Below, one piece after another: positions 2,606 to 47,794 of a DNA stretch of 64,000 nucleotides. The notes under the pieces are model-generated. The model searched no databases, was not told the DNA's origin, and saw only the letters and a program-made list of their open reading frames with translations. Numbering within the stretch: the first letter of the stretch is position 1; each line of letters opens with the position of its first letter. Source of the DNA: Ktedonobacterales bacterium (GTDB taxonomy: Bacteria; Chloroflexota; Ktedonobacteria; Ktedonobacterales; JADMIN01); assembly GCA_025935195.1 (NCBI GenBank), contig JAICVS010000001.1:44518-108517 (forward strand), written 5' to 3'. A program made the position numbers and the translations under genes.

Positions 2606-3103
2606 ATGAAGGATGACCGGGACAGTCGGGAGCGCGACAATCAGCCGCGAGAGGCACAGGCGCGCGTCCGCATCGGCGTCTTCGCCGTCATCGAGCGCGA
2701 CGGACGCTATCTGCTGGCACGGCGCCGCGACATCGGCTGGTGGAATCTGGCCGGCGGCGGCATGGAGTATGGCGAGACCGTGGAGGAGGCGCTGGCGCGC
2801 GAGGTGCGCGAAGAGATCGGCTGCGCGATCCAGATCCGCCGGCTGGTCGGCGTCTATTCCAAGCCGCGCAAACGCGAGGTGGTCTTCGCGTTTCTCTGCG
2901 CGCTGGCGCCGGACAGCCCGGAGCCGGAGACGAGCGAGGAGGTCTCAGAGGTGGCATGGTTCGTGCCGCCGGAGTTCCCCGCCGATCTCTTACCCAAGCA
3001 CCGCCAGCGGCTAGAGGATGCGCTGCTGGATCGCGCCGAGACCATCGTGCGCGCGCAGCTCACATCCACCGAGGACGATCAGCGCCGGCCGGCAGGATTG
3101 TAG
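2606..3103 (+). CDS. NUDIX hydrolase
   Basis: NUDIX box GGGMEYGETVEEALAREVREEIGC. I prefer the ATG at 2606, which is preceded by GGGAGGGG, over the ORF-track start at 2558. Confidence 0.85.
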   Translation: MKDDRDSRERDNQPREAQARVRIGVFAVIERDGRYLLARRRDIGWWNLAGGGMEYGETVEEALAREVREEIGCAIQIRRLVGVYSKPRKREVVFAFLCALAPDSPEPETSEEVSEVAWFVPPEFPADLLPKHRQRLEDALLDRAETIVRAQLTSTEDDQRRPAGL

Positions 3104-3269
3104 CGACGAGCGAGCGGCCAGCATTCCGCGTGACGATGGTCCTACCCGACCAGGACCGGCGGCGTCTTGGATGGACGCGCGCGCGTGGCGGCGGATATAG
3201 TGGGAGGTACCCGTCCGGCAGCGTGGCCGCGGCCGGACGGCCAGCGGGAGGGCAGACGGGAGGATCTCC

Positions 3270-4235
3270 ATGGACGCGGTTGCCGCCGGCGCGCCCCCGC
3301 CCACCATCCTTGTGGTCGAGGACGATCCCCGCATCGGCCGGCTCCTGCGGCACACCCTTGAGGCGGAGGGGTTCACCGCGGTGGTCACGCCGACCGGCGA
3401 GGAGGGCATCACCTATGCCCTGCGCGAAGTGCCCCAACTGCTCATCCTCGACATCATGCTCCCAGGCATGGACGGCTTCCAGGTCGTCGAGCACCTGCGC
3501 GCGCACGCCAAGACCGCCCACATCCCCGTCGTCATGCTCAGCGCGCGCCACGACACCGCCGACAAGGTGCGCGCCTTCGAGTCCGAGGTCAACGACTACC
3601 TCACCAAGCCGTTCAACAGCGACGAGCTGCTGGCGCGCATCCGCAACCAGCTCCGCCACGTGCGTGAGACCCTGCTCTCCTCGCTGACCGGCCTCCCCTC
3701 CGGCCTGCGTGTAGAGCGCGCCATCGAGCAGCAGCTCGAATCCCCCGCCCACTGGTCCATCCTCTACGTTGATCTGGACAATTTCAAGGCCTACAACGAC
3801 GTCTACGGCCCCATCCGCGGCAACGACATCATCCAACTGCTCGGCCGCATCACCACCGAAAGCGTGCGCGACGAGGGCAACCTGAGCGACTTCGTGGGCC
3901 ACATCGGCGGCGACGATTTCGTCGTCGTCACCAGCCCCGACCGCGTGGATGGCATCTGCCGCACCCTCATCGCCCACTGGGACACGGAAAGCCTCGCGCT
4001 CTACGATGCCGACGACGTGGCGCGCGGCACGCTGATCGCCAGGGATCGCCAGGGCCAGCCGCAGGTCTATCCGCTCATCGGCGTCTCCATCGGCGTGGTG
4101 ACGAACAGTCACCGGCCAATCGCCACGATGGAAGAGGTCAGCCGCATCGCCGCCGAGGTCAAATACAAGGCCAAGTCGCAGCGCGGCAGCACCTACTACA
4201 TTGACCAGCGCGCCGGCCCCGCCTCCCTCTCCTGA
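3270..4235 (+). CDS. Response regulator (REC) fused to a GGDEF-type nucleotide cyclase domain; the motif reads GGDDF
   Basis: REC motifs: ILVVEDD, DIMLPGMDG, KPF. Palm domain: YVDLDNFKAYNDVYG...VGHIGGDDFVVV. RBS GGGAGGA lies upstream. Confidence 0.85.
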   Translation: MDAVAAGAPPPTILVVEDDPRIGRLLRHTLEAEGFTAVVTPTGEEGITYALREVPQLLILDIMLPGMDGFQVVEHLRAHAKTAHIPVVMLSARHDTADKVRAFESEVNDYLTKPFNSDELLARIRNQLRHVRETLLSSLTGLPSGLRVERAIEQQLESPAHWSILYVDLDNFKAYNDVYGPIRGNDIIQLLGRITTESVRDEGNLSDFVGHIGGDDFVVVTSPDRVDGICRTLIAHWDTESLALYDADDVARGTLIARDRQGQPQVYPLIGVSIGVVTNSHRPIATMEEVSRIAAEVKYKAKSQRGSTYYIDQRAGPASLS

Positions 4236-4292
4236 CGCCCGCTCACCCCCGCGCGCGATCATTCACAAGCCCTGAAGGGTGAAGGTCTCTCC

Positions 4293-4321
4293 TTGACATC
4301 CCCCTCTATTTATGGTAACTT
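4293..4321 (+). promoter_or_regulatory. Sigma70-like promoter candidate ~170 nt upstream of repeat C1
   Basis: TTGACA (4293-4298), a 17-nt spacer, then TAACTT (4316-4321), in a locally AT-rich patch. The -10 match is weak. Confidence 0.3.
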
Positions 4322-4462
4322 AGTTCTATCATCGCGGTGCCACCCCCCGCACCGCCAGCACCTTACCAACTCCATACACCAGGCAAACGCCCAACCCGCA
4401 CCCACTGACTGACGACCAGTCATATTCACATGATGCCGTGGACACCGCCGCACCCCACCACC

Positions 4463-4657
4463 CTTGCCGCTTGTGCCGCCCACCGTGCCATCCGTTGCCA
4501 CTTCATTGCCGTTTCTTGCCGCTTTTGCCACCCATAATACGAAACGTCAAGTTCGTATGGGCCGCAAATCGGCTTGAATGCGGCATTCGAGAGGAGAACG
4601 CCCATGATACAAAATCAAAAAGCGGCAAAAACGGCAATGTTGACCATCCCACTCAAC
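4463..4657 (+). repeat. Repeat family C, copy 1: long-hairpin element with a phased TGCC array on its 5' side
   Basis: The left arm CATTGCCGTTTCTTGCCGCTTTT (from 4504) is complementary to the right arm AAAAGCGGCAAAAACGGCAATG, giving ~22 bp with one bulge. The conserved 3' tail is GTTGACCATCCCACTCAAC. Other copies lie at 26907..27085(-) and 47540..47739(+). Confidence 0.75.
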
Positions 4658-4730
4658 ATTGCCGCGCATGACGATCCCCGCCAAGGGCAACACTGCACCG
4701 GCGACCTGGGATCAGTCGCGCCGCTTTGCT

Positions 4731-4812
4731 CTGAGGTGTCGTCATTGACCAGATCGGCTCGTCACGGGATTACCCCCGGCATTCATGCCGGGAGGCCAAC
4801 GAACGACACCCA
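4731..4812 (+). repeat. Repeat family B, copy 2
   Basis: GGATTACCCCCGGCATTCATGCCGGGAGGCCAACGAACGAC is shared with copies 1 and 3. The flanking arms GAGGTGTCGTCATTG and CAACGAACGACACCC are imperfectly inverted. Confidence 0.7.
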
Positions 4813-4966
4813 TTCAACGCAAATCGGTATGATCCGGCTATGCCGCCCCCATGCGCCCGGCGTGACGGCCGGGCGGCGGCGCGCGGTACAATGCGAATGC
4901 GACAAGCCATCTCCGATCCGCCGCTCGCGCATCAGACAGGCAGCGCCGAGGAGGCACGATAGAGGC

Positions 4967-5482
4967 ATGAGCGAGAAAACGACGAAGGGCGCGACACAAC
5001 GGACGCCGCGGGCCGCTCCGCGTACCGCCCGCACGAGCGGCAAGGCGACGAAAGGTGCCGCGGCGTCGGCAACGCAGCCGGCCAGCGCCACGCCGGAAGT
5101 GCCCCTGTCATTGGACGAGGAGCGCCAGCGGCAGGCCGTGCGCGAGAACGCCAAGCGCGTCATCCGCGAGAGCGGCATCGGCGAGATGCTGCGCACGCTG
5201 AACCACAACGCCCTGCAAGAGCGCGGCTGGTTCGAAGAGTATGATTCCGGCGTGATCATGAAGTGGGGCACGGGCTACACGCGCCGCCACATCTGGGTGG
5301 ACATCACCGGCGACGCACTGCGTTTCCGCCTGCTGCCGCACATCAAATGCGCCGCGCCCATGCCGGCCTGCGACGGCGAGTATCATAGCTTCACCCGCGA
5401 AACCTGGCGCCTGCCCGGCGCGCTGCTGCGCGAGCTACACCGCAACTACGAGCATCCCGTAGCCGAAACCTCGGAGGACTAA
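4967..5482 (+). CDS. Hypothetical protein
   Basis: This is an in-frame ATG within ORF 4574..5482, preceded by GAGGAGGC. The upstream part of that ORF runs through repeats C1 and B2 and is probably not coding. I recognised no family. Confidence 0.5.
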   Translation: MSEKTTKGATQRTPRAAPRTARTSGKATKGAAASATQPASATPEVPLSLDEERQRQAVRENAKRVIRESGIGEMLRTLNHNALQERGWFEEYDSGVIMKWGTGYTRRHIWVDITGDALRFRLLPHIKCAAPMPACDGEYHSFTRETWRLPGALLRELHRNYEHPVAETSED

Positions 5483-15635: not shown

Positions 15636-15675
15636 TTTCACCACAGAGGGCACAGAGGACACAGAGGACGGAGAG
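15636..15675 (+). repeat. Repeat family D (purine-rich CACAGAGGACACGGAGG type), copy 1
   Basis: TTTCACCACAGAGGGCACAGAGGACACAGAGGACGGAGAG. Related to 7 other intergenic copies in this window. Confidence 0.7.
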
Positions 15676-19905: not shown

Positions 19906-20090
19906 ATCCACCCACCCTCGACCCCACAATTGTTCGCGGCTGTTCTCGCGGTTGCCGCGCGTGCTCGCGCCTTGCAGCCCTATGCGCAGTATACCATGCC
20001 TTAGAAGTAGCACGTGGCTTCGTCCATGCCACGGCGCCGCATAGGCTATGCCAAAGGCTAGTGCCATGATGGCGATTTAGGCCATTTGGG

Positions 20091-21041
20091 CTATGCCGTC
20101 GCGGGGCCAGCGGGCTGAGGCGAAGGTGCGGGCGTGGGTTCCGGAGCCGATTCGGTTGGTACAGGGGTAGGTGACGGGTTGGGAAGCGGTGTAGCCGTCG
20201 GCGCAGCGGTCGCCTGGGGTGTTGGTATCGGCTGCGGGGTAGGTTGAGGCGTCGGGACAGGGGTACGCGTCGGATCAGGGGGTGGAGTAGTTGTTGGCGC
20301 CGGGGTGGGTGAGGGTGCTGGGGTGGCCGTCGGCGCCGGGGTGGGTGAGGGTGCTGGAGTAGGCGACGGCGCGGGCGTCGGTGATGGCGCGGCCGTCGGA
20401 GCCGGGGTGGGCGATGGCGCGGGCGTCGGCGCCGGGGTGGATGTCGCGGTCGGAGCAGACGTGGGTGTCGCCACGGGCGTCGCGGTGGGTTGCGGGCGCG
20501 GTGTGCTGGTTGGCGTGGGCCTGGGCGTCACCGTCGGCTGGGGAGTATTCGTCGGACGCGGGCCCGCCTCGACGCCGGGGAAGTGCGTCAGCGACGAGCT
20601 GGAGAACGGCACCAGCCCACTCGTGAGCGCGCCCAGCACAGCGGCGGCGAGCAACACAACGGCGGCGATCGCGCCCGCGGCTGTGCTGAAGCGACGCTCG
20701 TGCGCGGCATCCACAAGCCGTTGCGCCCCGGAACGGCGCTCGCCGGGCCAGTCCGGCTGGGCGCTGGTAGGCCTTCCCACCAACCGCTCGCCAGGATGTC
20801 GCGCCTCGGGCAGCGATGGCAGCACAGGGTCGGGCGCGACATGTTCCGGCTGCGCGGGAGACCCCGGCCATGTCGGCTGATCTTGCCAGTCCGAACTCTC
20901 GTCCGGATACTCCGCCCAGTAGCGCGCGCCGGGCGGCAACGACGACGGCACAGTGCGGTCATCAGGCCACCACGACTGCCCCTGTTCCGATTCCGGCGCT
21001 TCACCTTCCGGCGCTTCACCTGGCTCCGGCCAGCGATCCAT
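20091..21041 (-). CDS. Hypothetical membrane-anchored protein with a long Pro/Thr/Ala-rich C-terminal region
   Basis: One TM segment (AIAAVVLLAAAVLGAL) followed by ~150 aa of TPxPTP-type low complexity. Confidence 0.5.
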   Translation of the reverse strand: MDRWPEPGEAPEGEAPESEQGQSWWPDDRTVPSSLPPGARYWAEYPDESSDWQDQPTWPGSPAQPEHVAPDPVLPSLPEARHPGERLVGRPTSAQPDWPGERRSGAQRLVDAAHERRFSTAAGAIAAVVLLAAAVLGALTSGLVPFSSSSLTHFPGVEAGPRPTNTPQPTVTPRPTPTSTPRPQPTATPVATPTSAPTATSTPAPTPAPSPTPAPTAAPSPTPAPSPTPAPSPTPAPTATPAPSPTPAPTTTPPPDPTRTPVPTPQPTPQPIPTPQATAAPTATPLPNPSPTPVPTESAPEPTPAPSPQPAGPATA

Positions 21042-21247
21042 CGCCTGCCCTCCATGTGTCCTTGGAACATCACAACGCTCTGCCGTAGCTCATTGCAGCA
21101 TGCGGGCCAACATCGCTGTCCCATGTTCTTCGCCAGCGCGTCTATACCTCGCTGGTGATCGGCTGACTGCTCGTGGCATGCCAATCCCGCTGATCGGGTG
21201 ATCGGGCATCTCGCTGGCAGGGAAGGCCCGCGTCCTTGCTCAAGTTC

Positions 21248-22660
21248 CTATGGTTCGTCCAGTGAATCGCCATCATCGGTGGGTGTCGGGGTGGGTGTCG
21301 GCAGGGGGGAAGCTGTGGGCTGATGGTCGGGTGTAGGGGTCGGCTCAGGCTGTGCGGTCGGCGTGGGCGCTGGCGCCGGGGTGGATGTCGGAGCGGGTGG
21401 GGCCGGCGTCGCGGTCGGCTGTGGACGCGGTGTTGCCGTTGGGATAGGCCGGGGCGTCGCGGTGGGGTGCGGTTTGGGCGTCGCGGTGGGGTGCGGTTTG
21501 GGCGTCGCGGTGGGGTGCGGTTTGGGCGTCGCGGTGGGGTGCGGTTTGGGCGTCGGCATTGGATTGGGCGGCATGGTTGTGGGTGACGGCCTGGGCTTCG
21601 GCGTCGCCGTTGGAGCGGGTCTGGGGGTAGCGGTCGGGATGGGCTTCGGCGTCACTATCGGCTGGGGGCGCGGGGTGGCCGTGGGCTGGGGATGAGGCCG
21701 GGGATCGGAGCGCGGGGTCGGGCGCGGAGCCGGTGGGTGATGAACGACGGGTCGCGGCGGAGGTGGGAGGACAACGGGCCGTGGGGTAGGAGTAGCCGCC
21801 GGTGTAGGCTGTGGCGTGGCCGTGGCCGCGATGGTAGGGCGCGGAGTGGCCGTCGCGGTGGGCAGCGTGCGTGAGGCAATGGTCGCGGTCGGTCGCGGCG
21901 CGGCCAGAAGCCCGTCGGCACCAGCCGCATCGGTTGGCGCGACACGGCCGACGAGCACGGCGCTGAGCGCGACGGCCAGCACCAGCAGCGACGCCATCGC
22001 CCGCGCATGAGGTGCCAGCCGGAAGTAAGCGGCGGCCGATCTCCCGCGCTGCCTGCCATGCCTCCGGTTCCGGCCAGAGATGATGGTGACGGAGGCATGG
22101 TAAATGGGCGCGAGTCCAGCCTGCGCAATACGGCGTGGCGCGGTGTTGGGTGAGCGGCGCACGAGCGTGACTGGTGCAGGTGGCGCGATGGATTGTAGTG
22201 GGTAGTGCGCGGCTGGCGCCGCGCGGCGGATGGAGCCAGCAGGGACAGGACGGCTGGCGGGAGCGAACGCGGCCAGGCGGCGTGACATGCTGGACGGCTT
22301 GCCTGGCGGTGAGGGCAGAGAGCGGACGATGGGCAGGTTGAGCAGGCGCGGCATAGCGGTGCGCCCCGCGCCGGGGATGACAGAGGCGGGAACTGGCACG
22401 GCGCCGAGCAGTGCGAGCACCGGGCCGGCCTCACTCCAGGTGACGGGGAAAGCCCGCAACGCCTCACCGTCGGTGGTGCGGATATAGAGGTCATGGCCGG
22501 TGGGAGTGCGGACACAGGCGGCGCCGGCGATGTGGGAGCGGGCCAGCGACCAATGCCGGGCGCGATATGGTCCGAACAGCGGGCTCAGGCTGACGCGGTC
22601 GGCGGTGATGTCGAGCCGGTCGAGTGTGCCGGCGATGCTGAGCTGCACAGGCATTGGCAT
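21248..22660 (-). CDS. Hypothetical protein: globular N-terminal domain, one TM segment, Pro/Thr-rich repetitive C-terminus
   Basis: The start is taken at MPMPVQLSIAG (GGGAGA upstream). The 707-aa track ORF extends upstream across the methyltransferase gene in another frame and is rejected. Confidence 0.5.
   Translation of the reverse strand: MPMPVQLSIAGTLDRLDITADRVSLSPLFGPYRARHWSLARSHIAGAACVRTPTGHDLYIRTTDGEALRAFPVTWSEAGPVLALLGAVPVPASVIPGAGRTAMPRLLNLPIVRSLPSPPGKPSSMSRRLAAFAPASRPVPAGSIRRAAPAAHYPLQSIAPPAPVTLVRRSPNTAPRRIAQAGLAPIYHASVTIISGRNRRHGRQRGRSAAAYFRLAPHARAMASLLVLAVALSAVLVGRVAPTDAAGADGLLAAPRPTATIASRTLPTATATPRPTIAATATPQPTPAATPTPRPVVLPPPPRPVVHHPPAPRPTPRSDPRPHPQPTATPRPQPIVTPKPIPTATPRPAPTATPKPRPSPTTMPPNPMPTPKPHPTATPKPHPTATPKPHPTATPKPHPTATPRPIPTATPRPQPTATPAPPAPTSTPAPAPTPTAQPEPTPTPDHQPTASPLPTPTPTPTDDGDSLDEP
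21453..21554. repeat. Tandem 24-bp repeat, about 4.2 units, inside the PT-rich CDS
   Basis: GGCGTCGCGGTGGGGTGCGGTTTG repeated head to tail. It encodes four (TPKPHPTA) units on the minus strand. Confidence 0.9.
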
Positions 22661-22772
22661 GGCATCGTCTCCCTCTCGCCGCACGCCCTGCGTTCCGGCC
22701 ACTGGACTGACCGGCGCACACAAGATCAAGCACAAACGATGCCGCGGGTACAGGCGGGCGCCAGCGGGATGC

Positions 22773-23534
22773 TCAGACGGCCGGGAGGGCGAAGCGGTGA
22801 ACGACGACGCGCACGCTGTCGCCGTCGGGCGGCCAGGCGCGCTCGTAGACGCTGGGATCGTCGCGCCAGCCGGCGGCCTGGGCAGCGGCGACGAAGGCAC
22901 GCGACACGCGGCGGCCCGGCTCGGCCAGCCAGAAGCGGCCGCCGGGGGCGAGCAGAGCGGGGGCGAGGGCGAGCAGTGGGGCGAGGTCGTCCTGTTCGTA
23001 GAGGACATCGGCGGCGAGGAGCAGGCCGAAGGGGGCGGCGGCGCGGCAGGCATCGCGGCCGGCCTCGGTGCGCCAGTCCAGCAGACGGGTGAGCGGGACG
23101 GCGCAGGCGTTGCGCAGGGCGTTGTGGCGGGTGAAGAGCAGAGCTTCGGCGAAGGTGTCGGCGGCGATGAGATGAGCGCCGCAGGCGAGGGCGGCGGCGG
23201 CGGTGACGCCCAGGCCACAGCCAAGCTCCAGAGCGCGGTGAGCGCGGGCGGCGACGGGATCAGCCAACAGAGCTTCGGCGAGGGCGAGGCCACTGGGCCA
23301 GAGCAGGCCCCAGTAGGGCATGTGGCGGCCGGCGGCGACGGCCTGGCGGGCTGCCGCCGCTGCGTCCGCACCAGATGGGGTGATCAGGGGCGGGCTGGGA
23401 GTGGACGACTTGGGGGGTGCGGCGGCGTAGCGGTCGAGTGGGGCATCGGGGTCGGCGGGGAGGGCGATGACGTAGGGATGGGCGGCACCGGGCAAGGGAA
23501 GCGTGAGGTCGCGCAGGGGATAGCGCGCAGCCAT
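22773..23534 (-). CDS. Class I SAM-dependent methyltransferase (protein-lysine-methyltransferase-like fold)
   Basis: YWGLLWPSGLALAEAL...ALELGCGLGVTAAAALACGA...LLAADVLYE. The start is at MAARYPL. Confidence 0.75.
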   Translation of the reverse strand: MAARYPLRDLTLPLPGAAHPYVIALPADPDAPLDRYAAAPPKSSTPSPPLITPSGADAAAAARQAVAAGRHMPYWGLLWPSGLALAEALLADPVAARAHRALELGCGLGVTAAAALACGAHLIAADTFAEALLFTRHNALRNACAVPLTRLLDWRTEAGRDACRAAAPFGLLLAADVLYEQDDLAPLLALAPALLAPGGRFWLAEPGRRVSRAFVAAAQAAGWRDDPSVYERAWPPDGDSVRVVVHRFALPAV

Positions 23535-23540
23535 ACGACG

Positions 23541-23625
23541 ACGGAGGGGAGCGAGGAGACGAAGAACTACCACGGAGGAAACGGAGGGAGCGGAGGCGAC
23601 ATGGAGGGTGGGAGAGATGGAAGAG
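23541..23625 (+). repeat. Repeat family D, copy 2 (degenerate)
   Basis: ACGGAGGGGAGCGAGGAGACGAAGAACTACCACGGAGGAAACGGAGGGAGCGGAGG, between the histidine kinase stop and the methyltransferase start. Confidence 0.5.
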
Positions 23626-23662
23626 TCAGGAAGATCAGGTGGGTTGGGGGGATGGGGTGGCA

Positions 23663-26635
23663 TCATGGGGCCGTGAGGGGATGTGAGGTGAGGGCTGGCA
23701 GCTCGCCGGAGTCGGCGAGGGGGCCGGAGGCGGCGGGGAGGGCGAAGGCGAAGACGCTGCCGCGGTCGGGGGCGCTGGCGTGGAGCCAGATGTCACCGTC
23801 CATAACACGGATGAGCTGGCGGCAGATGTAGAGGCCGAGGCCGGTGCCGCGGATCTGGCTGATACGGGCGGAGTCGGTGCGGGAAAAGCGGCCGAAGAGG
23901 CGGTCGCGCTCGGCATCAGGAATGCCCAGGCCCTCGTCGCTGACGGTGACGGCGTAGTAGCGGCGCTGGCTGGCGGCGGCGGTGACGGCGGGCAATGGTG
24001 CGGCGGGATCGTTCTCGGGGTCGAGGGCGCCGGCGAGCAGGTGCGGCAGCTCGAGGGTGGGGCGCTCCTCGATGGCGCCGGTTTCTGTGGTGCGTGGCGC
24101 GAGTGGGCCGCCGGGCAGCGTGAAGAGGCCGGGAGCGGTTTCATCGGCCGGAAGAGCGACGGGCTGGCAGCGGACGAGGACGTGGCCGCCATGGGGGCTG
24201 TATTTGACGGCGTTGCCGACGAGGTTATCGAGAACCTCTTTGAGGCGGCCGAGGTCGGCGTGCAGGTAGACATCGGGCGGGATGTCGGCAAGCAGCTCGT
24301 GGGTCCCGCCCTGGGCCTGCCCCAGCTCGCGGTAGGAGCGCAGCACGTCGTCCACGACGCCGGCGAGGCGGACGGGGCCGGCGTGCAGCTCGATGCGGCC
24401 GGAATTGAGGCGCGAGGTCTGGAGGAGACGTTCGGCGATCTCGGCAAGCTCCTGGGCGGAGTCGAATGATTTGCGCAGGAAGTCGAGCGCAAGCTCGCTA
24501 TCACGGGAGCCGGGGAAGTCGAGCAGGAGATCGAGGAAGCCCTGGACGCCGGTGAGGGGTGTGCGTAGCTCGTGGGAAGCCGTGGCGATGAAGTCGTCTT
24601 TGAGGCGGTCAAGCTCGCGCTGCTTTTGGTAGGCGCGCTCCAGCTCGACGTAGGTGCGGGCGTTCTCGATGGCCTGGGCGGCCTGGGCGGCGAAGAGATC
24701 GAGCAGCCAGAGATCGTCATCGCTGAAGACGCGGCGCTCGGCGTCGTCCAGCACATCGAGGACGCCGACGACCTGGCCGTGATGGATGAGGGGGACGGCG
24801 ATGACGGCGCTGAAGGCTTCGTCGTCGTAGATGGCGGCGCGGAAGGGGTAGGCGCGGTAGTCGTCCACGATCAGCCCTTGGGCGGTGGCGGCGACGCGGC
24901 CGGGCAGGCCCTCGCCGACGCGGATGCGGGCGCCGGTGTAGTCGCCGCGCAGGCCCTCACAGACGATCACTTCGAGGTCGTCGTGGCGCGGGTCGCGGGC
25001 GTAGACGGTGCCGGCGCGGGCACTGAGCAGGGCGATGGAGCGACGCAGGATGTCGGCGAGCAGCTCGCGGGGGTCGGCGCCGAGCTGGCTGGCGACGGCG
25101 AGGGAGGTGGCGTGGAGGGTCATCATCTGGCCGATGCGCTCCTGAGCGAGATCGGCGACTTCCTGGGCGCGCTGGCGGGCGATGACCTGGCGGGTGACAT
25201 CCACGGCGGCGACGAGGACGCCGCTGACGCCGTGGGAGCCAAGCAGAGGTGAGGTGGTGACGTTCCAGTAGGTGAGGCCGCGATCCTGCTGGTGGATAGG
25301 CAGCTCGATCATGGCCTGCGGCTCGCCGCTGGTGTAGACGGCGTCCAGCCGGAGGGCGGCGGCGAGGCGGGCGGCGCGGTCGTGTACGATCTCAGACAGG
25401 GGACGGCCGGTGAGGTGGGCATCGCTGGCGAGGCCGAGCAGGACGCTGAAGGCGGGATTGGCGAGGGCGATGAGCTGGTCAGGGCCGGAGAGGACGGCGA
25501 CGGCGACGGGAGTGTGGCGCACGACGGTCTGGGCGAGGGCTTCGTGGCTGCGGGAGTAGCGGAGCTGGCGGTCGCGGTCGGCGGCGAGGGCGGCGAGATC
25601 GCACAGCTCTTCGAGGACGGAGAGGTGGCGCGGGCCGAGGCGGGCGGATGTGGCGGCGGCAAGGACGCCGAGGAATTGGCCGCGGGCGCGCAGGGGGAAG
25701 GCGGCGAGAGTGCCAAGAGCAGAGGTGGCGGCGGGATCGCTGGGGGGAGGCGAATCGGCCAGATCAGCCAGATCGGAGGGAGTACTCGGATCGCTGGTCA
25801 CGTTGGAAGGGATGGCGAGAAGCTCCGGCCAACCGGCGGCGAGGGGATGGCCGGCGGCATCAAAGAGGACGAGGGGCTTGCGCGCGGCGACGACGTCGGC
25901 CAGCAACGGACCGGGGCGAGCGGGGATGGATGGTGAGGCCGGGCTGGCGTACGCCTGATGGGCGGAGGAGGCGAGCGCTGGGATGGAAATGGCGGCTGAA
26001 TCGGCTGCGAGTGCGGCGGGTGAGGGAGGGTACGGGACGGGGACGGCGCGAGTGAGGGCGCGAGCGGTGGCGCGCGGGCGCAGGGTGGGAAGCAGCTCTT
26101 GGCCGCCGGGGCGTGCGGTTTCATCGTCACCGCCGGGGACGGGATCGGCGATCCAGATCTGGACGGCGGCGGGGGCGAGGGCGGCGGCGAGTCCTTCGGC
26201 GACGAGCGGCGCGGCTTCGTCGAACGGGCGGTTGAGCAAGGCCTGGCGCAGGCCGGGAAGCAGGACGGCAAGGGGATCGGGAAGGGCGGCGGGCAGGCGC
26301 GGCTCATATTGGATGCGGGCGCGTTCGCCAAGGCCGGCGATGTTGCTCTCGCGCGGGCGGAGGCGGCTGGGCGCATGGCGGGCGGAGGCGGTGGCGGCGG
26401 ATGGTTCGGCGGGGGAAGTGGCAGCGGGCGCGTTGGTGGCATGGCGGCCGACGCGGGCGCGGGAGTTACGGGAATGGGGCGCGCTGATGGAAACGGGCGC
26501 GGCGAGCGGTTGAGCGGCGGAGGCGTCCTGGCTGGCGACAGCGGCAGGCACGGCAGGCACGCCGGCAGTGGTCGCGGGTGCGACAGCGGCGGGCGTACGG
26601 CGGTGGGTGGGACGCTGGGCTGGCTCGTCGGTCAT
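23663..26635 (-). CDS. Multi-sensor (GAF/PAS) histidine kinase
   Basis: H-box FIATASHELRTPLTGVQGF. ATPase N/G boxes LVGNAVKYSP and VSDEGLGIP...GTGLGLYICR. The start is taken at MTDEPAQ (26635). The track ORF extends to 27157 through repeats D3 and C2. Confidence 0.85.
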   Translation of the reverse strand: MTDEPAQRPTHRRTPAAVAPATTAGVPAVPAAVASQDASAAQPLAAPVSISAPHSRNSRARVGRHATNAPAATSPAEPSAATASARHAPSRLRPRESNIAGLGERARIQYEPRLPAALPDPLAVLLPGLRQALLNRPFDEAAPLVAEGLAAALAPAAVQIWIADPVPGGDDETARPGGQELLPTLRPRATARALTRAVPVPYPPSPAALAADSAAISIPALASSAHQAYASPASPSIPARPGPLLADVVAARKPLVLFDAAGHPLAAGWPELLAIPSNVTSDPSTPSDLADLADSPPPSDPAATSALGTLAAFPLRARGQFLGVLAAATSARLGPRHLSVLEELCDLAALAADRDRQLRYSRSHEALAQTVVRHTPVAVAVLSGPDQLIALANPAFSVLLGLASDAHLTGRPLSEIVHDRAARLAAALRLDAVYTSGEPQAMIELPIHQQDRGLTYWNVTTSPLLGSHGVSGVLVAAVDVTRQVIARQRAQEVADLAQERIGQMMTLHATSLAVASQLGADPRELLADILRRSIALLSARAGTVYARDPRHDDLEVIVCEGLRGDYTGARIRVGEGLPGRVAATAQGLIVDDYRAYPFRAAIYDDEAFSAVIAVPLIHHGQVVGVLDVLDDAERRVFSDDDLWLLDLFAAQAAQAIENARTYVELERAYQKQRELDRLKDDFIATASHELRTPLTGVQGFLDLLLDFPGSRDSELALDFLRKSFDSAQELAEIAERLLQTSRLNSGRIELHAGPVRLAGVVDDVLRSYRELGQAQGGTHELLADIPPDVYLHADLGRLKEVLDNLVGNAVKYSPHGGHVLVRCQPVALPADETAPGLFTLPGGPLAPRTTETGAIEERPTLELPHLLAGALDPENDPAAPLPAVTAAASQRRYYAVTVSDEGLGIPDAERDRLFGRFSRTDSARISQIRGTGLGLYICRQLIRVMDGDIWLHASAPDRGSVFAFALPAASGPLADSGELPALTSHPLTAP

Positions 26636-26736
26636 GCGATCCTCGTCTTCATTCGTGGCAGGCGGCTCCAGATGACAGTGTACATAGACGGGCGGCAGGG
26701 GGTCAACGCGGCTATGACTGGGGAAACGGAGAATGA

Positions 26737-26838
26737 ACCACAGATGACACGGAGGTCGCGGAGGTCGCGGAGGTCGCGGAGGACGAGAACCAACACGGAG
26801 GAACGGAGGCGAGGGAGGTTCACGGAGGAGGGAGGATG
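26737..26838 (+). repeat. Repeat family D, copy 3 (long variant with an internal 10-mer GGAGGTCGCG x3)
   Basis: ACCACAGATGACACGGAGGTCGCGGAGGTCGCGGAGGTCGCGGAGGACGAGAACCAACACGGAGGAACGGAGG. The GACGAGAACCAACAC(G/A)GAGGAACGGAGG block is shared with copies 4 and 8. Confidence 0.7.
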
Positions 26839-26906
26839 GGGCCGTGGAGGACGCCGAAGGCATGGAGGATGAGAGCGGATGGTGGGGGAGGGACGCGGAG
26901 AGAAGT

Positions 26907-27085
26907 TGACTGGGATGGTCACCATTGCCGTTTTTGCCGCTTTTCAGATTTTTATACGGCGAGGATGCGCGTGAGGGCTGAATTGAAGCGGGTTTGCTGG
27001 GATCGGCAACGTGATATGTGGTGGTATAGGTGGCAAAAGCGGCAAGAAACGGCAACATCCCCTTGCCGTTTTTGCCTACTGGGAT
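26907..27085 (-). repeat. Repeat family C, copy 2 (reverse orientation)
   Basis: The reverse complement reads ...GTTGCCGTTTCTTGCCGCTTTTGCCACC...GAAAAGCGGCAAAAACGGCAATGGTGACCATCCCAGTCAAC. ACTGGGATGG occurs at both ends (26908-26917 and 27076-27085). Confidence 0.75.
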
Positions 27086-27203
27086 GGCCGTGACGAGGGC
27101 GGAGAGGATGCCCGTGCAGGGACTGAAACCAGAGACGCCAGGAATCATGATGACCACCTCTCAGGCCGGTGGGATGCGAGCGCGCCACCGACGCCGCAAG
27201 GAT

Positions 27204-27232
27204 ATTATCGAACACTAATTCTGATCACGCAA
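27204..27232 (-). promoter_or_regulatory. Sigma70-like promoter candidate reading toward repeat C2 and the histidine kinase
   Basis: The minus strand reads TTGCGT, a 17-nt spacer, then GATAAT. This is a pattern match only. Confidence 0.35.
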
Positions 27233-27519
27233 GGAGGGAGACGGCAGGGGGGCATGGCTGATGAAGGTGCCTCTAAGCGCAAGTCTGCCCTAGCCGAGCC
27301 GTACTATAAACATGCGCAACATCAGTCGTCATCAGGAGACAACAAGGGCCATCTCTGCTATACTGGCGGCGAGGGAGAGGGAGACGGCGATGCAACTGCC
27401 GAGGCGGCTCGCCGCATACGCCGATCACGAGTCACGAGCTCACGAGAGATCGGCCGCTATGGAAGAGCGATCACGTCACGCATGCCCGTTTTCGAGATAC
27501 GCACAGGGAGGAGATCACG

Positions 27520-30271: not shown

Positions 30272-30375
30272 CCCCTTCTTCCTCTGCGAACCTCCGTTCC
30301 CTCCGTGTTCCTCCGTGTTGGTTCTCGTCCTCTCCTCCCTCTCTCCTCCGTGTTCCTCCGTGTCCTCTGTGGTAA
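30272..30375 (-). repeat. Repeat family D, copy 4 (long variant)
   Basis: The minus strand reads TTACCACAGAGGACACGGAGGAACACGGAGGAGAGAGGGAGGAGAGGACGAGAACCAACACGGAGGAACACGGAGGGAACGGAGG. Confidence 0.75.
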
Positions 30376-33274: not shown

Positions 33275-33480
33275 ACCGCCGGCGAACGCGGCGAGGGGCA
33301 TGAATGCCCGCACGGTACGGCGCATGTGTTCAACCGTGACAACTCCCCACGGCTAAAGCCGGGGCTTCTAGGCCGAAGCCAGAGACTGTTGCCCCAGTCT
33401 CAAAATATTCAGGCTCGCGTTGAAATCGCGGTCCAGCACCACGCCACAACAGGGGCAGGTATAGGTCCGGTCGGAAAGGG
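33270..33480 (-). ncRNA. Predicted TnpB omega-RNA (reRNA) scaffold region; boundaries approximate
   Basis: Placed by analogy: in IS200/IS605 elements the guide RNA overlaps the tnpB 3' end and the right end. Local hairpins are GGCTTCGGCC, CCCCGGCTTTAGCCGTGGGG and GGGCATTCATGCCC (minus-strand sense). Confidence 0.35.
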
Positions 33481-34483
33481 AGAGCGTTTGCCGATGGCCA
33501 CACTGCGAGCAATCCTGCGACGTGTAGGCAGGGTTCACGGCGACATAGCTCCGACCGGCCCATGCTGCCTTGTACGAGAGAAGATCCGCGAACTGGCTCC
33601 ACGCCGCGTCATGGATGCTCTTGGCGAGGCAATGGTTATGCACCATCCGATTGACCGCGAGGTCTTCAACGGCGATCAGGTCAAAGCTGTTGACGATGCG
33701 CCGGCTATGCTGGTGCACAAAGTCACCGCGCCGCCAGCGCGTCCGCTCGTAGACACGCGCGACCACGTGACGGCGCTTGGCGCGTTCGGGCGTACCCTTC
33801 TCTGCTTTAGAGAGGCGGCGCTGTGCCTTGGCAAGCGCCTTCTCCTCCTGGCGGAAGAAGCGCGGGTTCGCCACCTCATCGCCAGTCGAGAGCGTGGCGA
33901 ACGTCGTCAAACCGACGTCAATGCCTACCTGCCGCCCGGTCTCCGGCAGCGGGAATGGCTCAGCGCACTCGCACGAAAACGAGACAGACCACTTGCCCGT
34001 GCTGCCGCGGCGGATGGTGGCGGTCTTGGGTGTGCCTTCCAGCGGGCGATGCACGATGATCTTGACCAGCCCGACGTTCATGATGCGCAGGCGCCTGGCC
34101 TCAGCGTCCAGATGGCAACCCACCGGCACCTGTGGGAAGGTGAAGCTGTCGTAGCGCCCCTCACCCCGGAAGCGTGGATAGCCCGGTTCCTTCTCCCCCG
34201 CCTTCACTCGCCGGAAGAATGCCTGGAAGGCCAGGTCAATGCGGACCGCGACATTCTGCAACACCTGCGACTGCACCCCTGCCAGCGAGGGCCGCTCCGC
34301 TTTGAGGGCGGGCAGCGTCGCGTGCTGGTCATAGAGCCGCACCGACTCGCCCCGCTGCTCCCAGGCATCGCGGCGCTCGGCCAGCAGGTGATTGTACAGC
34401 CAGCGGCACTCCTCCAACTGCCGCTCCAGGAGGCGCTGCTGCTGCTTGTTCGGGTACAGGCGGTACGTGAATGTCTTACACAT
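33368..34483 (-). CDS. tnpB: TnpB (IS200/IS605 OrfB) RNA-guided endonuclease
   Basis: N-terminus MCKTFTYRLYPNKQQ. RuvC-I VGIDVGL, RuvC-II IAVEDL, zinc finger CSQCGH...CPCCG, RuvC-III DRDFNASLNIL. The 433-aa track ORF extends upstream through repeat D5, so the start is taken at 34483. Confidence 0.9.
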   Translation of the reverse strand: MCKTFTYRLYPNKQQQRLLERQLEECRWLYNHLLAERRDAWEQRGESVRLYDQHATLPALKAERPSLAGVQSQVLQNVAVRIDLAFQAFFRRVKAGEKEPGYPRFRGEGRYDSFTFPQVPVGCHLDAEARRLRIMNVGLVKIIVHRPLEGTPKTATIRRGSTGKWSVSFSCECAEPFPLPETGRQVGIDVGLTTFATLSTGDEVANPRFFRQEEKALAKAQRRLSKAEKGTPERAKRRHVVARVYERTRWRRGDFVHQHSRRIVNSFDLIAVEDLAVNRMVHNHCLAKSIHDAAWSQFADLLSYKAAWAGRSYVAVNPAYTSQDCSQCGHRQTLSLSDRTYTCPCCGVVLDRDFNASLNILRLGQQSLASA

Positions 34484-34580: not shown

Positions 34581-34668
34581 GCTATTGTTTCCGTTCTCCC
34601 TCTCTCTCCTCCCTCTCCTCCCTCTCCTCCCTCTCTCCTCCGTGTTCCTCCGTGTCCTCTGTGGCTCA
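34581..34668 (-). repeat. Repeat family D, copy 5
   Basis: The minus strand reads TTGAGCCACAGAGGACACGGAGGAACACGGAGGAGAGAGGGAGGAGAGGGAGGAGAGGGAGG... It abuts the MBL gene stop codon and the tnpB left end. Confidence 0.75.
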
Positions 34669-35439
34669 AGTCTCGTCTGCCCGTAGCAGGATGCTGAATT
34701 CGCCGAACAGGTGCTTGCGCGTGCCGGGGTCCGCCGGGAACTCCACCCAGCGCGAGCGGCCCGCCAGCGCCTCATCCAGCGCCGCCAGCACCCGCCGCGC
34801 CAGCGCCGGCTCGTGCTCCGGCTGCTCGTGGCCGCCGTAGAGCGTGCGCACGCGCGCGTCCGCCGCGATCCGCTCCAGCGAGCGCCGCCATTGATCCAGG
34901 TCCGCATCCGACGTCTGGAACCAGAGCGTGCCCGCGTAGCAGGTGTCCGCGCAGAAGAGCGATTCCGTGGCCGCGTCGAGCAGGCTCACGTGCCCCGGCG
35001 AATGCCCCGGCGTGTGCCAGACGGCCAGCGACCGCCCGCCCAGATCGATCACATCGCCTTCGGCCAGCAACCCCGTCGCTGGCGCCGCGCGGATCGGCCC
35101 CACCTGCTCCACATCGTACGTCTCGCGCAGTCGCTCCGCCTCCGCCGCATGGATGCGCCGATCCGCGAACTGATACGTGCCGCCGACGTGATCCCAATGG
35201 CTGTGCGTGCAGAGGTTGATCAGCGGCTTGTCGGTGAGCCGGCGGCACGCCGCCGCCACATCGCCGATGCCCATCCCCGAATCGATCAGCGCCGCGCGCT
35301 CCGTCCCTTCCACCAGATACAGGTTCACCACCGCTACGTCGTACTCCGGCGCGACGCGCCCAATGGGATCGCGCAGCACCCACACCCCCGGCGCGATTGC
35401 CCGCGTCTCGAACCATTCGTCCGCCATGTCATGCCCCAT
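34666..35439 (-). CDS. MBL-fold metallo-hydrolase
   Basis: HxHxDH motif in LCTHSHWDHVGG, and later HTPGHSPGH. The start MGHDMADEW has GAGGAG 8 nt upstream. Confidence 0.85.
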   Translation of the reverse strand: MGHDMADEWFETRAIAPGVWVLRDPIGRVAPEYDVAVVNLYLVEGTERAALIDSGMGIGDVAAACRRLTDKPLINLCTHSHWDHVGGTYQFADRRIHAAEAERLRETYDVEQVGPIRAAPATGLLAEGDVIDLGGRSLAVWHTPGHSPGHVSLLDAATESLFCADTCYAGTLWFQTSDADLDQWRRSLERIAADARVRTLYGGHEQPEHEPALARRVLAALDEALAGRSRWVEFPADPGTRKHLFGEFSILLRADET

Positions 35440-35460
35440 CTTCATCACTCCTCTCATCTC

Positions 35461-44867: not shown

Positions 44868-44927
44868 GACATCCTATAGACACCAGAGCATGCTGAGGAC
44901 TGTGCGAGAGAGGGACGTATTGCCGAC

Positions 44928-44972
44928 CTTCCCTCACTCCTCTGTGAACCTCCCTGTCCTCTGTGGTGAATC
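44928..44972 (-). repeat. Repeat family D, copy 6 (short)
   Basis: The minus strand reads GATTCACCACAGAGGACAGGGAGGTTCACAGAGGAGTGAGGGAAGG. Confidence 0.65.
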
Positions 44973-45941: not shown

Positions 45942-46010
45942 TCTCTCCGTCTCTCCTCCGTCTCTCCTCCGTCTCTCCTCTGTGTCCACTGTGTCCTCTG
46001 TGGTGAATTC
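45941..46010 (-). repeat. Repeat family D, copy 7
   Basis: The minus strand reads GAATTCACCACAGAGGACACAGTGGACACAGAGGAGAGACGGAGGAGAGACGGAGGAGAGACGGAGAGAT, with an internal 11-mer x3. Confidence 0.7.
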
Positions 46011-46102: not shown

Positions 46103-46453
46103 ATGAACAGCGCAATCCTTGGCTTCATCAGCGTCGGCAACACCACCCTCAACGCCGGCGGCTGCATCTCCTGGGCCGTCGCCGGGCTGCTGGCCGGCTG
46201 GCTTGCCGGACTGCTCGCGCGCGGGCGCGGCTTCGGCTGCCTCGGCGACATCCTGCTCGGCCTCGTCGGCGCCGTCGTCGGCCTCTTCCTGCTCAATCTC
46301 GTCGGCTTCAGCCTGCCACCGGAGCTGGGCTTCTGGGGCACCACACTCGTCGCCTTCGTCGGCGCCTTCATCCTCGCGCTGATCGGCCGGCTACTCGGCG
46401 GTTCCGGCCGGCATCGGAGCTATCCCGACTGGCGCTATCGCCGCCAGCCGTAG
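46103..46453 (+). CDS. GlsB/YeaQ/YmgE family (transglycosylase-associated) small membrane protein
   Basis: GWLAGLLARGRGFGCLGDILLGLVGAVVGLFL is a typical family motif. Confidence 0.8.
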   Translation: MNSAILGFISVGNTTLNAGGCISWAVAGLLAGWLAGLLARGRGFGCLGDILLGLVGAVVGLFLLNLVGFSLPPELGFWGTTLVAFVGAFILALIGRLLGGSGRHRSYPDWRYRRQP

Positions 46454-47213
46454 CGTCCGCCTCCGCTGGCGCGGGCGGCGTTGGCAGCGTCTTGAGCCGC
46501 GCCAGCGTGATCCCCACGCCCGCCAGCCAGAACGCCAGTGCCGCGAAGCTCAACGTCCCCGTCCCCACCTCCACCTGCGCCGGACCGGCCAGGAACAGCA
46601 GCGCCGTGATCGCCAGCAGCAGCGCCGCCAGCAGGCCGAAGGCGCCCAGCAGCGGCGAGATGCGCCTTGACTGGGAGCGGATGCTCGTGATCCCTGTCAG
46701 GGCCAGGAACGCGGCCACCAGCAGTCCGCCCGCCACGTGCGAGAGCAGGTTCTGCGCGCCGAAGGCGAACACGAAGCCGCTTACCGCGCTCGCCTGGCTC
46801 CCCGCCGCGTACGCGCTCGCCGCGCGCAGGTGTGTCGCCGTCCCAATCGCCGTCGCCAGCGCGTAACACGCGAACCCCGCCGCGCCCACGTAGACCGCGA
46901 TCGGCCGCCGCCCGCCCCGCCCATCCGCGCCCACCGGCCGCAACACGCGCCAGAGCGTGAGCGGCAGCGCCAACGCCAGCAAGAACGGCACGATCTCCAC
47001 GATGTGGAACGCGAGGTCCGGCCCCGGATACGTCGCGATCCACGCCAGCAGCGGCGCGAAATCGCCGTGTTGCGCCGCCGCGTCCGCCGCCGTCACGTAG
47101 CCCACCGGCGCCAGGAACGCGCTCTCGAACAGCGGAATCCCGATCACGATCAGCGCGCCCGCGATCACCGCGTAGATGCCCCGCAGCCGCACCCGCGCCA
47201 GCTCGATACTCAC
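46368..47213 (-). CDS. Hypothetical polytopic membrane protein
   Basis: Six or more hydrophobic segments. No family recognised. Its 3' end overlaps the convergent gene by 86 nt. Confidence 0.55.
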   Translation of the reverse strand: MSIELARVRLRGIYAVIAGALIVIGIPLFESAFLAPVGYVTAADAAAQHGDFAPLLAWIATYPGPDLAFHIVEIVPFLLALALPLTLWRVLRPVGADGRGGRRPIAVYVGAAGFACYALATAIGTATHLRAASAYAAGSQASAVSGFVFAFGAQNLLSHVAGGLLVAAFLALTGITSIRSQSRRISPLLGAFGLLAALLLAITALLFLAGPAQVEVGTGTLSFAALAFWLAGVGITLARLKTLPTPPAPAEADATAGGDSASRDSSDAGRNRRVAGRSARG

Positions 47214-47384
47214 CGCGCATCTCCCATCCCATTCGTCGCGTCTGTCCTCCGTAGAGTGTATTATCGTCCGTGCCGCGCGACAACATATCTTCTCTCTCCA
47301 ACCGGCGCAGGCCGGTTTCGTGGCCGCCAGGCCTTCAGGCGCGGTTTCAACCGCCGGCTGGCTGCCCGCACACGTGTCGTTTGC

Positions 47385-47413
47385 TTGACGCCGTGGAAAT
47401 CATGTACTAAAGT
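47385..47413 (+). promoter_or_regulatory. Sigma70-like promoter candidate upstream of repeat C3 and chrA
   Basis: TTGACG (47385-47390), a 17-nt spacer, then TAAAGT (47408-47413). This is a pattern match only. Confidence 0.3.
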
Positions 47414-47539
47414 TAACGGCGCCGAGGGGATGGGAAGATGCGGGACACGTAGGCGGAGGCGGAGGAGCGGCAATGGGAAGCATACTCGTGTGGCGGGCGC
47501 ATGGCCGATGCATGGCGCCATCGCGTCATCGTGGCGCAA

Positions 47540-47739
47540 GTGGCAACGCGAGATCGCCACATATTGCCACTCAGGTTGCCGCCGACCTTGCCACTTCTTG
47601 CCGTTTTTGCCGCCCATAACACGAAATGTCACGTGGCCGCGCGCCACAAAGTCCCTTGAATTCGGCATTCGAGCCGAAGCCGCCTCCGATACATCATCAA
47701 AAAGCGGCAAAAACGGCAATGGTGACCATCCCAGTCAAC
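47540..47739 (+). repeat. Repeat family C, copy 3
   Basis: ...CTTGCCGTTTTTGCCGCCCATAAC...TTGAATTCGGCATTCGAG...TCAAAAAGCGGCAAAAACGGCAATGGTGACCATCCCAGTCAAC, preceded by a phased TGCC array from ~47554. Confidence 0.75.
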
Positions 47740-47794
47740 ATCATCCGCTGACAAACAGTCATCCGGCCGCGCCAGGGACTGGAAGGAGGCTCGT

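Follow-up and report, generated by a model that had tools for sequence, protein, structure and literature searches.

Family C of a Ktedonobacterales genome: a candidate promoter-bearing mobile intergenic repeat

In a 64-kb stretch of DNA from a Ktedonobacterales bacterium (hereafter the window; 68.8% G+C), three copies of a long hairpin, family C, lie near chrA, a gene for a GAF/PAS histidine kinase, and a small hypothetical gene that is followed by an S9 peptidase gene. What is this element, and does it belong to those genes? The original prediction, made from the sequence alone, placed each copy in a long 5' leader and left two choices: a miniature inverted-repeat transposable element (MITE), or a transcribed, structured RNA that acts in cis or as a small RNA (sRNA). 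We found that the hairpin is the 3' part of a non-coding repeat unit of ~330-375 bp. Our preferred reading, which we believe somewhat more than we doubt, is that family C is a promoter-bearing, non-autonomous mobile or duplicative intergenic repeat, or a “mobile promoter” in the sense of MITEs, BIMEs, and Correia elements.

The three copies (C1, C2, and C3) are where they had been predicted to be. The 19-mer AAAGCGGCAAAAACGGCAA occurs exactly at 4619-4637(+), 26925-26943(-), and 47701-47719(+), and none is expected in shuffled sequence. (A fourth match with three mismatches, at 47598-47616(-), is C3's own left arm.) The shared 3' tail was also confirmed: GGTGACCATCCCAGTCAAC follows all three copies with 0-2 mismatches, and shuffles are again expected to give none. 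The downstream genes are the hypothetical gene, the histidine kinase, and chrA, as had been stated. When C1, C2, and C3 are aligned, the mean column identity is 74%, and the right arm and tail are invariant. Compared to shuffled sequences, the fold z-scores are -4.5 for C1, -2.3 for C2, and -3.9 for C3. A stem of ~22 bp had been described for all of the copies. C1 and C2 have it, with one bulge, but C3 has 16 perfect base pairs, and across the family it is usually the proximal ~12 bp that are complementary.

A dispersed unit that includes a promoter

To find more copies, we scanned soil-metagenome contigs for a 25-mer, requiring an exact match except at two degenerate positions. At least 120 further matches were found, which gave 123 non-redundant copies. 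The exact 21-mer is also present in other Ktedonobacterales metagenome-assembled genomes (MAGs), and the chrA protein of the window is 100% identical to proteins from two Ktedonobacterales MAGs.

When the outside copies are aligned, similarity begins at cCTTGACA and stops after TTGCC(R). Between these boundaries, the order is promoter, AGTTCT, stem-loop, leader motif, ~100 variable nucleotides, an array of TGCC motifs, core, right arm, and palindrome. Of 92 copies with enough upstream sequence, 59 have the conserved start of the unit ~320 nt upstream of the right arm. Conversely, all 60 of the 5' domains that we detected, in ~545 kb of sequence examined, have the 3' module behind them. The mean pairwise identity is 32-34% in the flanks, 72% in the promoter, 74% in the leader motif, 44-47% in the variable parts, 72% in the core, 99% in the right arm (in part an ascertainment effect), 54% in the seven nucleotides (N7) at the center of the palindrome, and 84% in its distal arm.

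A profile of 41 outside copies (nhmmer) matches exactly three loci in the window: 4291-4665, 47527-47742, and 27057-26903. The match to C1 has E = 1.7e-93 and covers model positions 1-364. C1 had been given a length of 195 bp; in the family alignment, it extends over 375 bp (4291-4665). This also changes the view of the sigma70-like promoters that had been proposed upstream of the copies. They are present, but the promoter of C1 lies inside of the repeated unit instead of being a separate upstream element.

In the main subfamily, the promoter has a perfect TTGACA in 33 of 41 copies, a TG extension (-15/-14) with a 17-nt spacer in 35 of 41, and the consensus -10 box TAAATT. Among the 33 copies outside of the main subfamily, 22 have a promoter match in the same sense, 185-435 nt upstream of the right arm. 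(A scan for strict consensus promoters did not call the promoter of C1.) The parts of the three window copies are as follows.

4291-4665, + strand: C1, a complete unit of the main subfamily, from promoter to palindrome (nhmmer and family boundaries)
4293-4321, + strand: C1 promoter, TTGACA (4293-4298), 17-nt spacer with TG at 4313-4314, and TAACTT (4316-4321), as read from the sequence
4322-4327, + strand: AGTTCT of C1, the remaining right half of the putative GAAC-N4-GTTC operator of the minority subfamilies (GTTC is invariant in the main-subfamily alignment)
4334-4355, + strand: C1 5' stem-loop P1, GCGGTGC / loop CACCCCCC / GCACCGC (a hairpin in the family)
4358-4379, + strand: C1 conserved leader motif, consensus GCACCTGAACAACCGCATAC (74% identity, versus 44% in the next variable stretch)
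4464-4529, + strand: C1 array of seven (T)TGCC motifs, including the previously described left arm CATTGCCGTTTCTTGCCGCTTTT at 4504-4526
4530-4617, + strand: C1 core between the arms, with CCCATAAY, GTCAAGTT, GGCTTGAAT, and GAGAGGAG (72% pairwise identity in the family)
4618-4639, + strand: C1 right arm AAAAGCGGCAAAAACGGCAATG, exact in C1, C2, and C3
4632-4664, + strand: C1 13-7-13 palindrome, CGGCAATGTTGAC / CATCCCA / CTCAACATTGCCG, which is the previously described tail plus the next TTGCC
26896-27232, - strand: C2 unit, of the minority type A subfamily (3' module 27060-26896, right arm 26944-26923, tail 26923-26905)
27232-27227, 27221-27210, and 27209-27204, - strand: C2 promoter, with TTGCGT, the box GAATTAGTGTTC, and GATAAT
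47385-47748, + strand: C3 unit in the leader of chrA (3' module 47527-47742 by nhmmer)
47385-47413, + strand: C3 promoter TTGACG-17-TAAAGT, called by the scan and kept in the ortholog
47598-47613, 47700-47721, and 47721-47739, + strand: C3 left arm TTGCCGTTTTTGCCGC, right arm, and tail; the ATG of chrA is at 47795

Family C is gained and lost between relatives. At the C1 locus, the order of genes (NUDIX, response regulator, hypothetical, S9 peptidase) is kept in related contigs. The spacer that holds C1 is 732 nt long in the window. Two relatives without C1 have shorter spacers: L140 (92% protein identity) has 232 nt, and L141 (77%) has 63 nt. In L138 (96%), other repeats are found at the site instead. 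In the window, the additional segment (~4256-4847) is made up of several pieces (a short upstream repeat, C1, ~100 nt, and a REP-like hairpin), and neither clean ends nor a duplication can be read from it. Around C2, we compared window positions 26600-27330 to L144 and L145 (90-92% identity), where the halogenase gene has a different upstream neighbor. Because the kinase gene, the CCTCC repeats, and C2 are all absent there, a rearrangement breakpoint coincides with this cluster of repeats. Synteny is thus broken in these relatives, and they offer no empty site for C2. C3 is present at the same place by the chrA ortholog (93% identity), with its promoter, right arm, and tail kept and one change in the right arm. 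The core of this orthologous copy is from a different subfamily, which points to either conversion between copies or re-insertion at the same site.

If family C is a mobile promoter, then each unit would be a small transcription unit with a sigma-70-type extended -10 promoter. The 5' hairpin may stabilize the transcript, and two inverted GGCAA motifs would fold back on the TGCC array. A unit that has landed would fire a structured RNA toward whatever lies downstream. C3 would thereby have become the leader of chrA, and other copies would sit behind convergent 3' ends or upstream of a gene's own promoter.

Several points weigh against this reading. We saw no target-site duplications at the ends of the copies (no flanking sequence is shared at the unit ends), and the two ends of the unit (cCTTGACA ... 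TTGCCR) are not inverted repeats of each other. Of the MITE option that had been proposed, a dispersed family is supported, with at least 120 further copies and presence/absence differences, but a plain MITE is not. No partner transposase or recombinase recurs among 297 clustered neighbor proteins. Most pairs of copies are just 50-80% identical in the core, so the family is old; near-identical pairs are found only among orthologs, so there is no sign of recent bursts. The unit is very probably transcribed in the stated sense, but this is a prediction from sequence. The gene calls at the metagenome loci rely on a crude codon model that was trained on six Pfam-supported genes of the window. The conservation of the right arm is partly due to ascertainment, because copies were chosen for their exact 25-mer. 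Finally, the conserved blocks look as if they are maintained in place, which would suit an element that is useful to the host at least as well as a selfish one. Because these blocks seem to be kept in place, a non-coding RNA (ncRNA) family and a DNA-level binding module are still live rivals.

RNA structure, a phased array, and an operator

The stem-loop just past the predicted start site is backed by compensatory changes. A hairpin of at least 5 bp is present in 41 of 47 copies, and its stem is spelled by 37 different strings. We then measured covariation on a gap-free alignment that was anchored on the conserved flanks only. The score is 0.230, versus 0.129 for shuffles (none of 500 reach the observed value) and 0.066-0.131 for slid controls. 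Similarly, there are 25 cells with double changes, versus 11.2 expected (0 of 500 shuffles).

The long hairpin is another matter. Covariation there had been suggested as a check, and by counting pairs, we found none in the long stem, the mid hairpin, or the tail, as the counts are at or below those of shuffles. With 41 full units as input, the only parts that RNAalifold recovers are the tail and the invariant arms. The distal half of the long stem is paired in 6-17 of the ~33-40 copies scored. Because this half seldom pairs, the long hairpin seems to arise from TGCC motifs that face GGCAA in a register that can slip. In a subsample of copies, the 3' module folds strongly on either strand (z ~ -5 and -4.5). 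G.U versus A.C mismatches, at 2 versus 8 in the 5' hairpin and ~10 versus 9 in the arm, do not show which strand is under selection. Among left-arm transitions at adjacent pairs, 10 yield G.U on the + strand and 9 yield it on the - strand, a nearly even split. The proposal of a transcribed, structured RNA thus fares well for the promoter within the unit and for the covarying 5' stem-loop, but not for gene-specific control or for covariation of the long hairpin.

Family C might instead be a family of ncRNA genes that the host maintains, with a role in trans (for example, as a sponge for a UUGCC-binding protein) or as a structural RNA, and that was dispersed by old duplications. We consider this to be unlikely. 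In its favor, conservation resembles that of a gene in running from the -35 box to a terminal hairpin. Three different architectures all retain the promoter, and covariation supports the 5' hairpin. The conserved blocks are 72-99% identical even though the variable segments have diverged nearly to saturation, and in the orthologous copy, the arm and tail are better kept than the neutral flanks. Also, a third of the copies have a convergent gene downstream and so cannot be leaders. However, known sRNA families have copy numbers far below what we count here (three in 64 kb and at least 120 elsewhere). The 3' domain lacks covariation, no end resembles a terminator, copies are gained or lost between close relatives, and other small mobile repeats are nested in or beside copies. 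The original prediction recognized no named RNA family, and we agree: Rfam has no match at the gathering score in the whole window, and of five weak matches (E <= 10) on 4250-4980, none is inside C1. A plasmid BLAST and a scan of viral contigs for the palindrome gave no match, and neither did the searchable literature on the arm sequences or on Ktedonobacteria repeats.

A second rival operates at the level of DNA: the array would wrap or bend DNA, in the way of the gyrase or nucleoid-protein sites of BIME-2/REP, the palindrome would be a site for a dimeric protein or a recombinase, and transcription would be incidental. The array has 1-9 TGCC motifs (mostly 3-9) that are 9-12 nt apart. Despite this variable spacing, the per-array mean period is 10.24 ± 0.19 (the null standard deviation is 0.51). 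Phase coherence is best at 10.25-10.5 bp, and neighboring spacings are negatively correlated (-0.37). The period fits helical phasing of GCC plus T-tract segments, that is, DNA that is bent or can be wrapped. But the phasing may reflect descent instead of selection, because the spacing pattern (9,12,10,...,11,9) is largely inherited.

The form of the terminal palindrome also suits a protein-binding site. In the family, it is CGGCAATGTTGAC-N7-GTCAACATTGCCG, with arms that are 84-99% identical and a 7-nt center that is 54% identical. CATCCCA is the commonest center; others include CGCGCCA, TGCCGCG, and TGGGATG, the reverse complement of the commonest. Orthologous pairs share the same center, its rate of divergence is about twice that of the core, and it behaves as an unconstrained loop or spacer. 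We rejected the idea that the center is derived from the target or is a coupling sequence. It is uncorrelated with the left junction (no better than permuted pairs, p = 0.49 for direct and 0.88 for reverse-complement matches), it is the same in orthologous pairs, and its divergence is merely faster than that of the core. We also considered whether the loop CAUCCCA forms a pseudoknot with a GGGAUG farther downstream, and rejected this because, on inspection, GGGAUG is the start of a separate REP-like repeat and is unchanged when the loop changes.

Besides the array period and the near-invariant arms around a free 7-bp center, the DNA-level explanation accords with the equal numbers of + and - strand G.U transitions in the left arm and with 3' helices that lack covariation of the RNA type. 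But neither the conserved promoter nor the 5' hairpin, with its covariation, would have a role under it, the spacing it relies on is largely inherited, and no binding protein was identified. We rate it as slightly more doubtful than the ncRNA family.

Many promoters of the minority subfamilies contain a second palindrome. A perfect RAAC-N4-GTTY is present in 12 of the 33 promoter regions from outside the main subfamily, and seven more score 7/8. By chance, 0.8% of shuffled sequences would have one, and there is one match in the whole 64-kb window. This operator-like box is enriched over 40-fold in the minority promoters. Within the ~545 kb, 15 of 27 perfect boxes are 150-420 nt upstream of a right arm, and a 16th (in L117) is 542 nt upstream with no intervening gene. 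There are two layouts. In type A, which includes C2 (box 7/8), the box is in the promoter spacer and abuts the -10 box. In type B, a full AGAAC-N4-GTTCT box begins 7-9 nt after a TG-extended TACACT. The promoter of the main subfamily is colinear with type B except for ~16 nt that include the left half-site, which leaves the invariant AGTTCT directly after the -10 box. The best box of C3 scores 6/8 and is well upstream of the promoter (GAAATCATGTAC at best, as read by eye).

Chloroflexi probably use GAAC-N4-GTTC, a LexA operator of the Gram-positive type, as their LexA motif. The same motif is used by the LexA of Firmicutes and Actinobacteria (PMC3323433). In 12-19 of the 33 minority-type copies, family C has this palindrome overlapping the spacer and -10 box or the start site, in the manner of repressor sites. 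In contrast, C1 has a half-site only, C2 has 7/8, and C3 has 6/8 at best. The ~545 kb includes no SOS gene, and none of the other perfect boxes is beside a recognizable one. We infer that the box is a LexA-box-like repressor operator, which makes SOS control a lead to follow; the dominant, de-repressed subfamily may have arisen when the left half-site was lost. A more specific scenario builds on these layouts. The unit would be a mobile element that depends on RNA or on transcription, similar to a short interspersed element (SINE) or a guide RNA, and its spread would need its own promoter, originally repressed by the SOS system; the main subfamily would have grown after the ~16-nt operator deletion; and the arm and palindrome would be the site for an enzyme provided in trans. 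We regard this combination as a long shot.

Neighboring genes

No complete copy overlaps a called gene, and one truncated copy does. The downstream gene is co-oriented for 62 and convergent for 32 of the 94 copies that could be scored; overall, ~66-75% of copies are co-oriented with the downstream gene. Where both neighbors were called, the arrangements are (+,+) for 19 copies, (-,+) for 17, (+,-) for 6, and (-,-) for 6. Some convergent neighbors have their stop codons 0-60 nt away; for example, there are histidine kinase genes that end 5 nt from the tail. So, all three of the window copies have the same sense as the next gene, as had been predicted, but this does not hold for the family. And because C2 lies in a divergent spacer, its orientation is uninformative. 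The downstream genes are varied as well. The 54 co-oriented downstream proteins belong to 68 unrelated Pfam families, including GAPDH, HrcA, MraZ, ThyX, DXR, PBP, and ChrA, and the commonest family has three members. The largest cluster of neighbor proteins consists of histidine kinase paralogs.

The prediction that the copies lie in long 5' leaders is clearly correct for C3 only. C1 and C2 have another promoter-like block before the gene. For C1, this is at ~4878-4893 and is kept in a relative without C1. For C2, there is a match to TTGACC-18-TACACT at 26706-26677, between C2 and the kinase gene. In contrast, C3 appears to be a true leader of chrA, because a conserved promoter precedes it and just 55 nt remain before chrA.

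Could family C be an ordinary MITE that is decaying and has no function, with promoters that arose by chance or belong to the neighbors? The inverted arms of 16-22 bp that bound its 3' module alone, around a variable core of ~100 nt, its high copy number, its intergenic locations, and its insertion polymorphism are all as expected for a MITE. However, the promoter and 5' domain are in the unit in 59 of 92 copies, and 60 of 60 5' domains have a 3' module. There is no target-site duplication; conservation is in blocks instead of fading uniformly; and the operator-like box is >40-fold enriched in the minority promoters. No autonomous insertion sequence with the same ends was found in the ~545 kb. 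Functionless decay is, in our judgment, quite improbable.

The least probable explanation is a structured leader RNA, similar to a riboswitch or an attenuator, that regulates the downstream gene in cis. In its favor, C3 does lie between a conserved promoter and the start of chrA with too little space left for a second promoter, co-orientation with the next gene is seen for ~66-75% of copies, and the Shine-Dalgarno-like GAGAGGAG is within the fold. Against it, the next gene is convergent for 32 of 94 scorable copies, the 54 downstream proteins are unrelated and fall into 68 Pfam families, a proximal promoter-like site follows the element for both C1 and C2, the register of the long stem is neither conserved nor supported by covariation, and C1 is dispensable in close relatives. 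As a general rule, then, the cis-leader explanation is largely refuted by the data on orientation and gene content. (We also considered a small open reading frame [ORF] behind GAGAGGAG, and rejected it because, on inspection of the main-subfamily alignment, only a minority of copies have a start codon there.)

Known repeat families and the intergenic mosaic

We compared the mobile-promoter reading of family C to known systems. Correia elements (CREE/NEMIS) of Neisseria are high-copy intergenic repeats of 100-155 bp with 26-bp terminal inverted repeats and a TA duplication. They form hairpins in transcripts, are co-transcribed with their neighbors, and vary between strains. They also carry promoters (PMC3575422). 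Family C is likewise high-copy, intergenic, and promoter-bearing, with inverted arms and variable presence. It differs in being 330-375 bp long, in having outer ends that are not inverted repeats, in lacking a duplication, and in having a 5' promoter module and a covarying hairpin.

BIME/REP elements of enterobacteria and BOX elements of Streptococcus pneumoniae are modular; the number of boxB modules varies in BOX, and BIME-2 binds gyrase. Family C is modular too (the number of TGCC motifs varies), forms mosaics with small repeats, and may have a site for protein wrapping. But REPs are palindromes of 20-40 bp, BOX has no promoter of its own, and neither has a promoter/operator module or a 13-7-13 palindrome.

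Matus-Garcia, Nijveen, and van Passel (2012) described putative mobile promoters, which are homologous promoter sequences before unrelated genes in one genome (PMC3575422). These were defined by similarity in the -150 to -50 region alone (PMC3575422). The promoter of family C is also found ahead of unrelated genes. The putative mobile promoters have no common anatomy, whereas family C has a defined architecture of 375 bp and is also found beside convergent genes.

Like the PATEs of IS200/IS605 and the REPs that are spread by RAYT, family C has no outer terminal inverted repeats and no target-site duplication, and it has a hairpin near each end. However, its end hairpins are unrelated to each other in sequence, unlike those of IS200/IS605 PATEs, and the left flank has at best a weak “CC” target, where elements of the IS200/IS605 type have a fixed one of 4-5 nt. 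No TnpA, TnpB, or RAYT gene adjoins any of the 123 copies. By analogy, family C is closest in behavior to Correia elements and to BIME/BOX mosaics. Because of the differences in size and ends and the missing duplication, it is not a member of either group.

The window does contain a solo TnpB gene (OrfB_IS605, Cas12f1-like TNB, HTH_OrfB_IS605) at 33368-34483(-), in an ORF that extends to 34669, with no TnpA gene beside it. We rejected it as the source of family C because, by inspection, its flanks share nothing with family C. Its 3' flank (~33310-33295, -) has a hairpin, GGGCATTCATGCCC, whose core is shared with the REP-like family described below. The gene after it (34666-35457) encodes a protein with a metallo-beta-lactamase fold.

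At least five repeat families make up a mosaic in the intergenic DNA of this clade. The REP-like hairpin GGATTACCCCCGGCATTCATGCCGGGAGG is at 4767-4806, 56251-56290, and 1295-1367. In at least 10 of 115 copies, such as L007, L026, and L123, it lies 3-6 nt after ATTGCC, directly next to the 3' end of family C. It is also nested in the 5' hairpin of family C in L035, so it is an independent small mobile repeat. Pyrimidine-rich repeats of the CCTCCGTG type, with many CCTCC motifs (similar to an anti-Shine-Dalgarno sequence), are at 26740-26860, 30307-30372, 34612-34664, 44923-44966, 15637-15668, and 45976-46007. Such repeats come after the tail in 16 of 115 family C copies and are also seen between C2 and the kinase gene and just upstream of the TnpB gene.

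Another repeat, CCCTnnnAGGGTTGCGGGGT...GGGTGAGGTTC, is located directly before the -35 box of C1 (4268-4292, in a short form) and in L028, L050, L132, L038, and L119. At the C1 site of L138, it is present without family C (1850-1900, 96% identity). The repeat TCTCTCCCCAACCGGCGCAGGCCGGTTTCGTGGCCGCAGGCCTTCAGGCGCGGTTTCAACCGCCGGCTGG is upstream of the C3 promoter (47285-47360) and is behind the tails in L020, L023, L027, and L040. The variable part of C1 (4404-4423) and that of copy L084 contain an inserted small palindrome, ACTGACTGAC..GTCAGTCA, which also occurs upstream in L123.

Long reading frames run through the repeats: 23663-27157(-) passes through C2 into the kinase gene, 4574-5482(+) runs through C1, and there is another at 46737-47798(+). 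Upstream of C1, a minus-strand ORF had been reported. The gene there is actually a GGDEF response regulator on the + strand (3270-4235), and the minus-strand ORF opposite to it (3060-4262, 400 amino acids) has no Pfam match. Similarly, the public MAG annotation includes a 281-amino-acid gene at 46368-47213(-) that has no Pfam match and is not supported by the codon model. Positions 20090-23780 are dense in tandem repeats of 18 and 24 nt (GGCGTCGCGGTGGGGTGCGGTTTG and relatives) within long minus-strand ORFs that have no Pfam match; these probably encode a low-complexity repeat protein.

Family C repeats break metagenome assemblies and create long spurious ORFs, so a model of the family would help annotators. 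If family C is indeed a mobile promoter, then it would be an anatomically defined case of “promoter propagation.” Soil Ktedonobacterales would hold dozens to hundreds of cassettes that combine a promoter with a leader, and these would shape the transcription of unrelated genes, including chrA.

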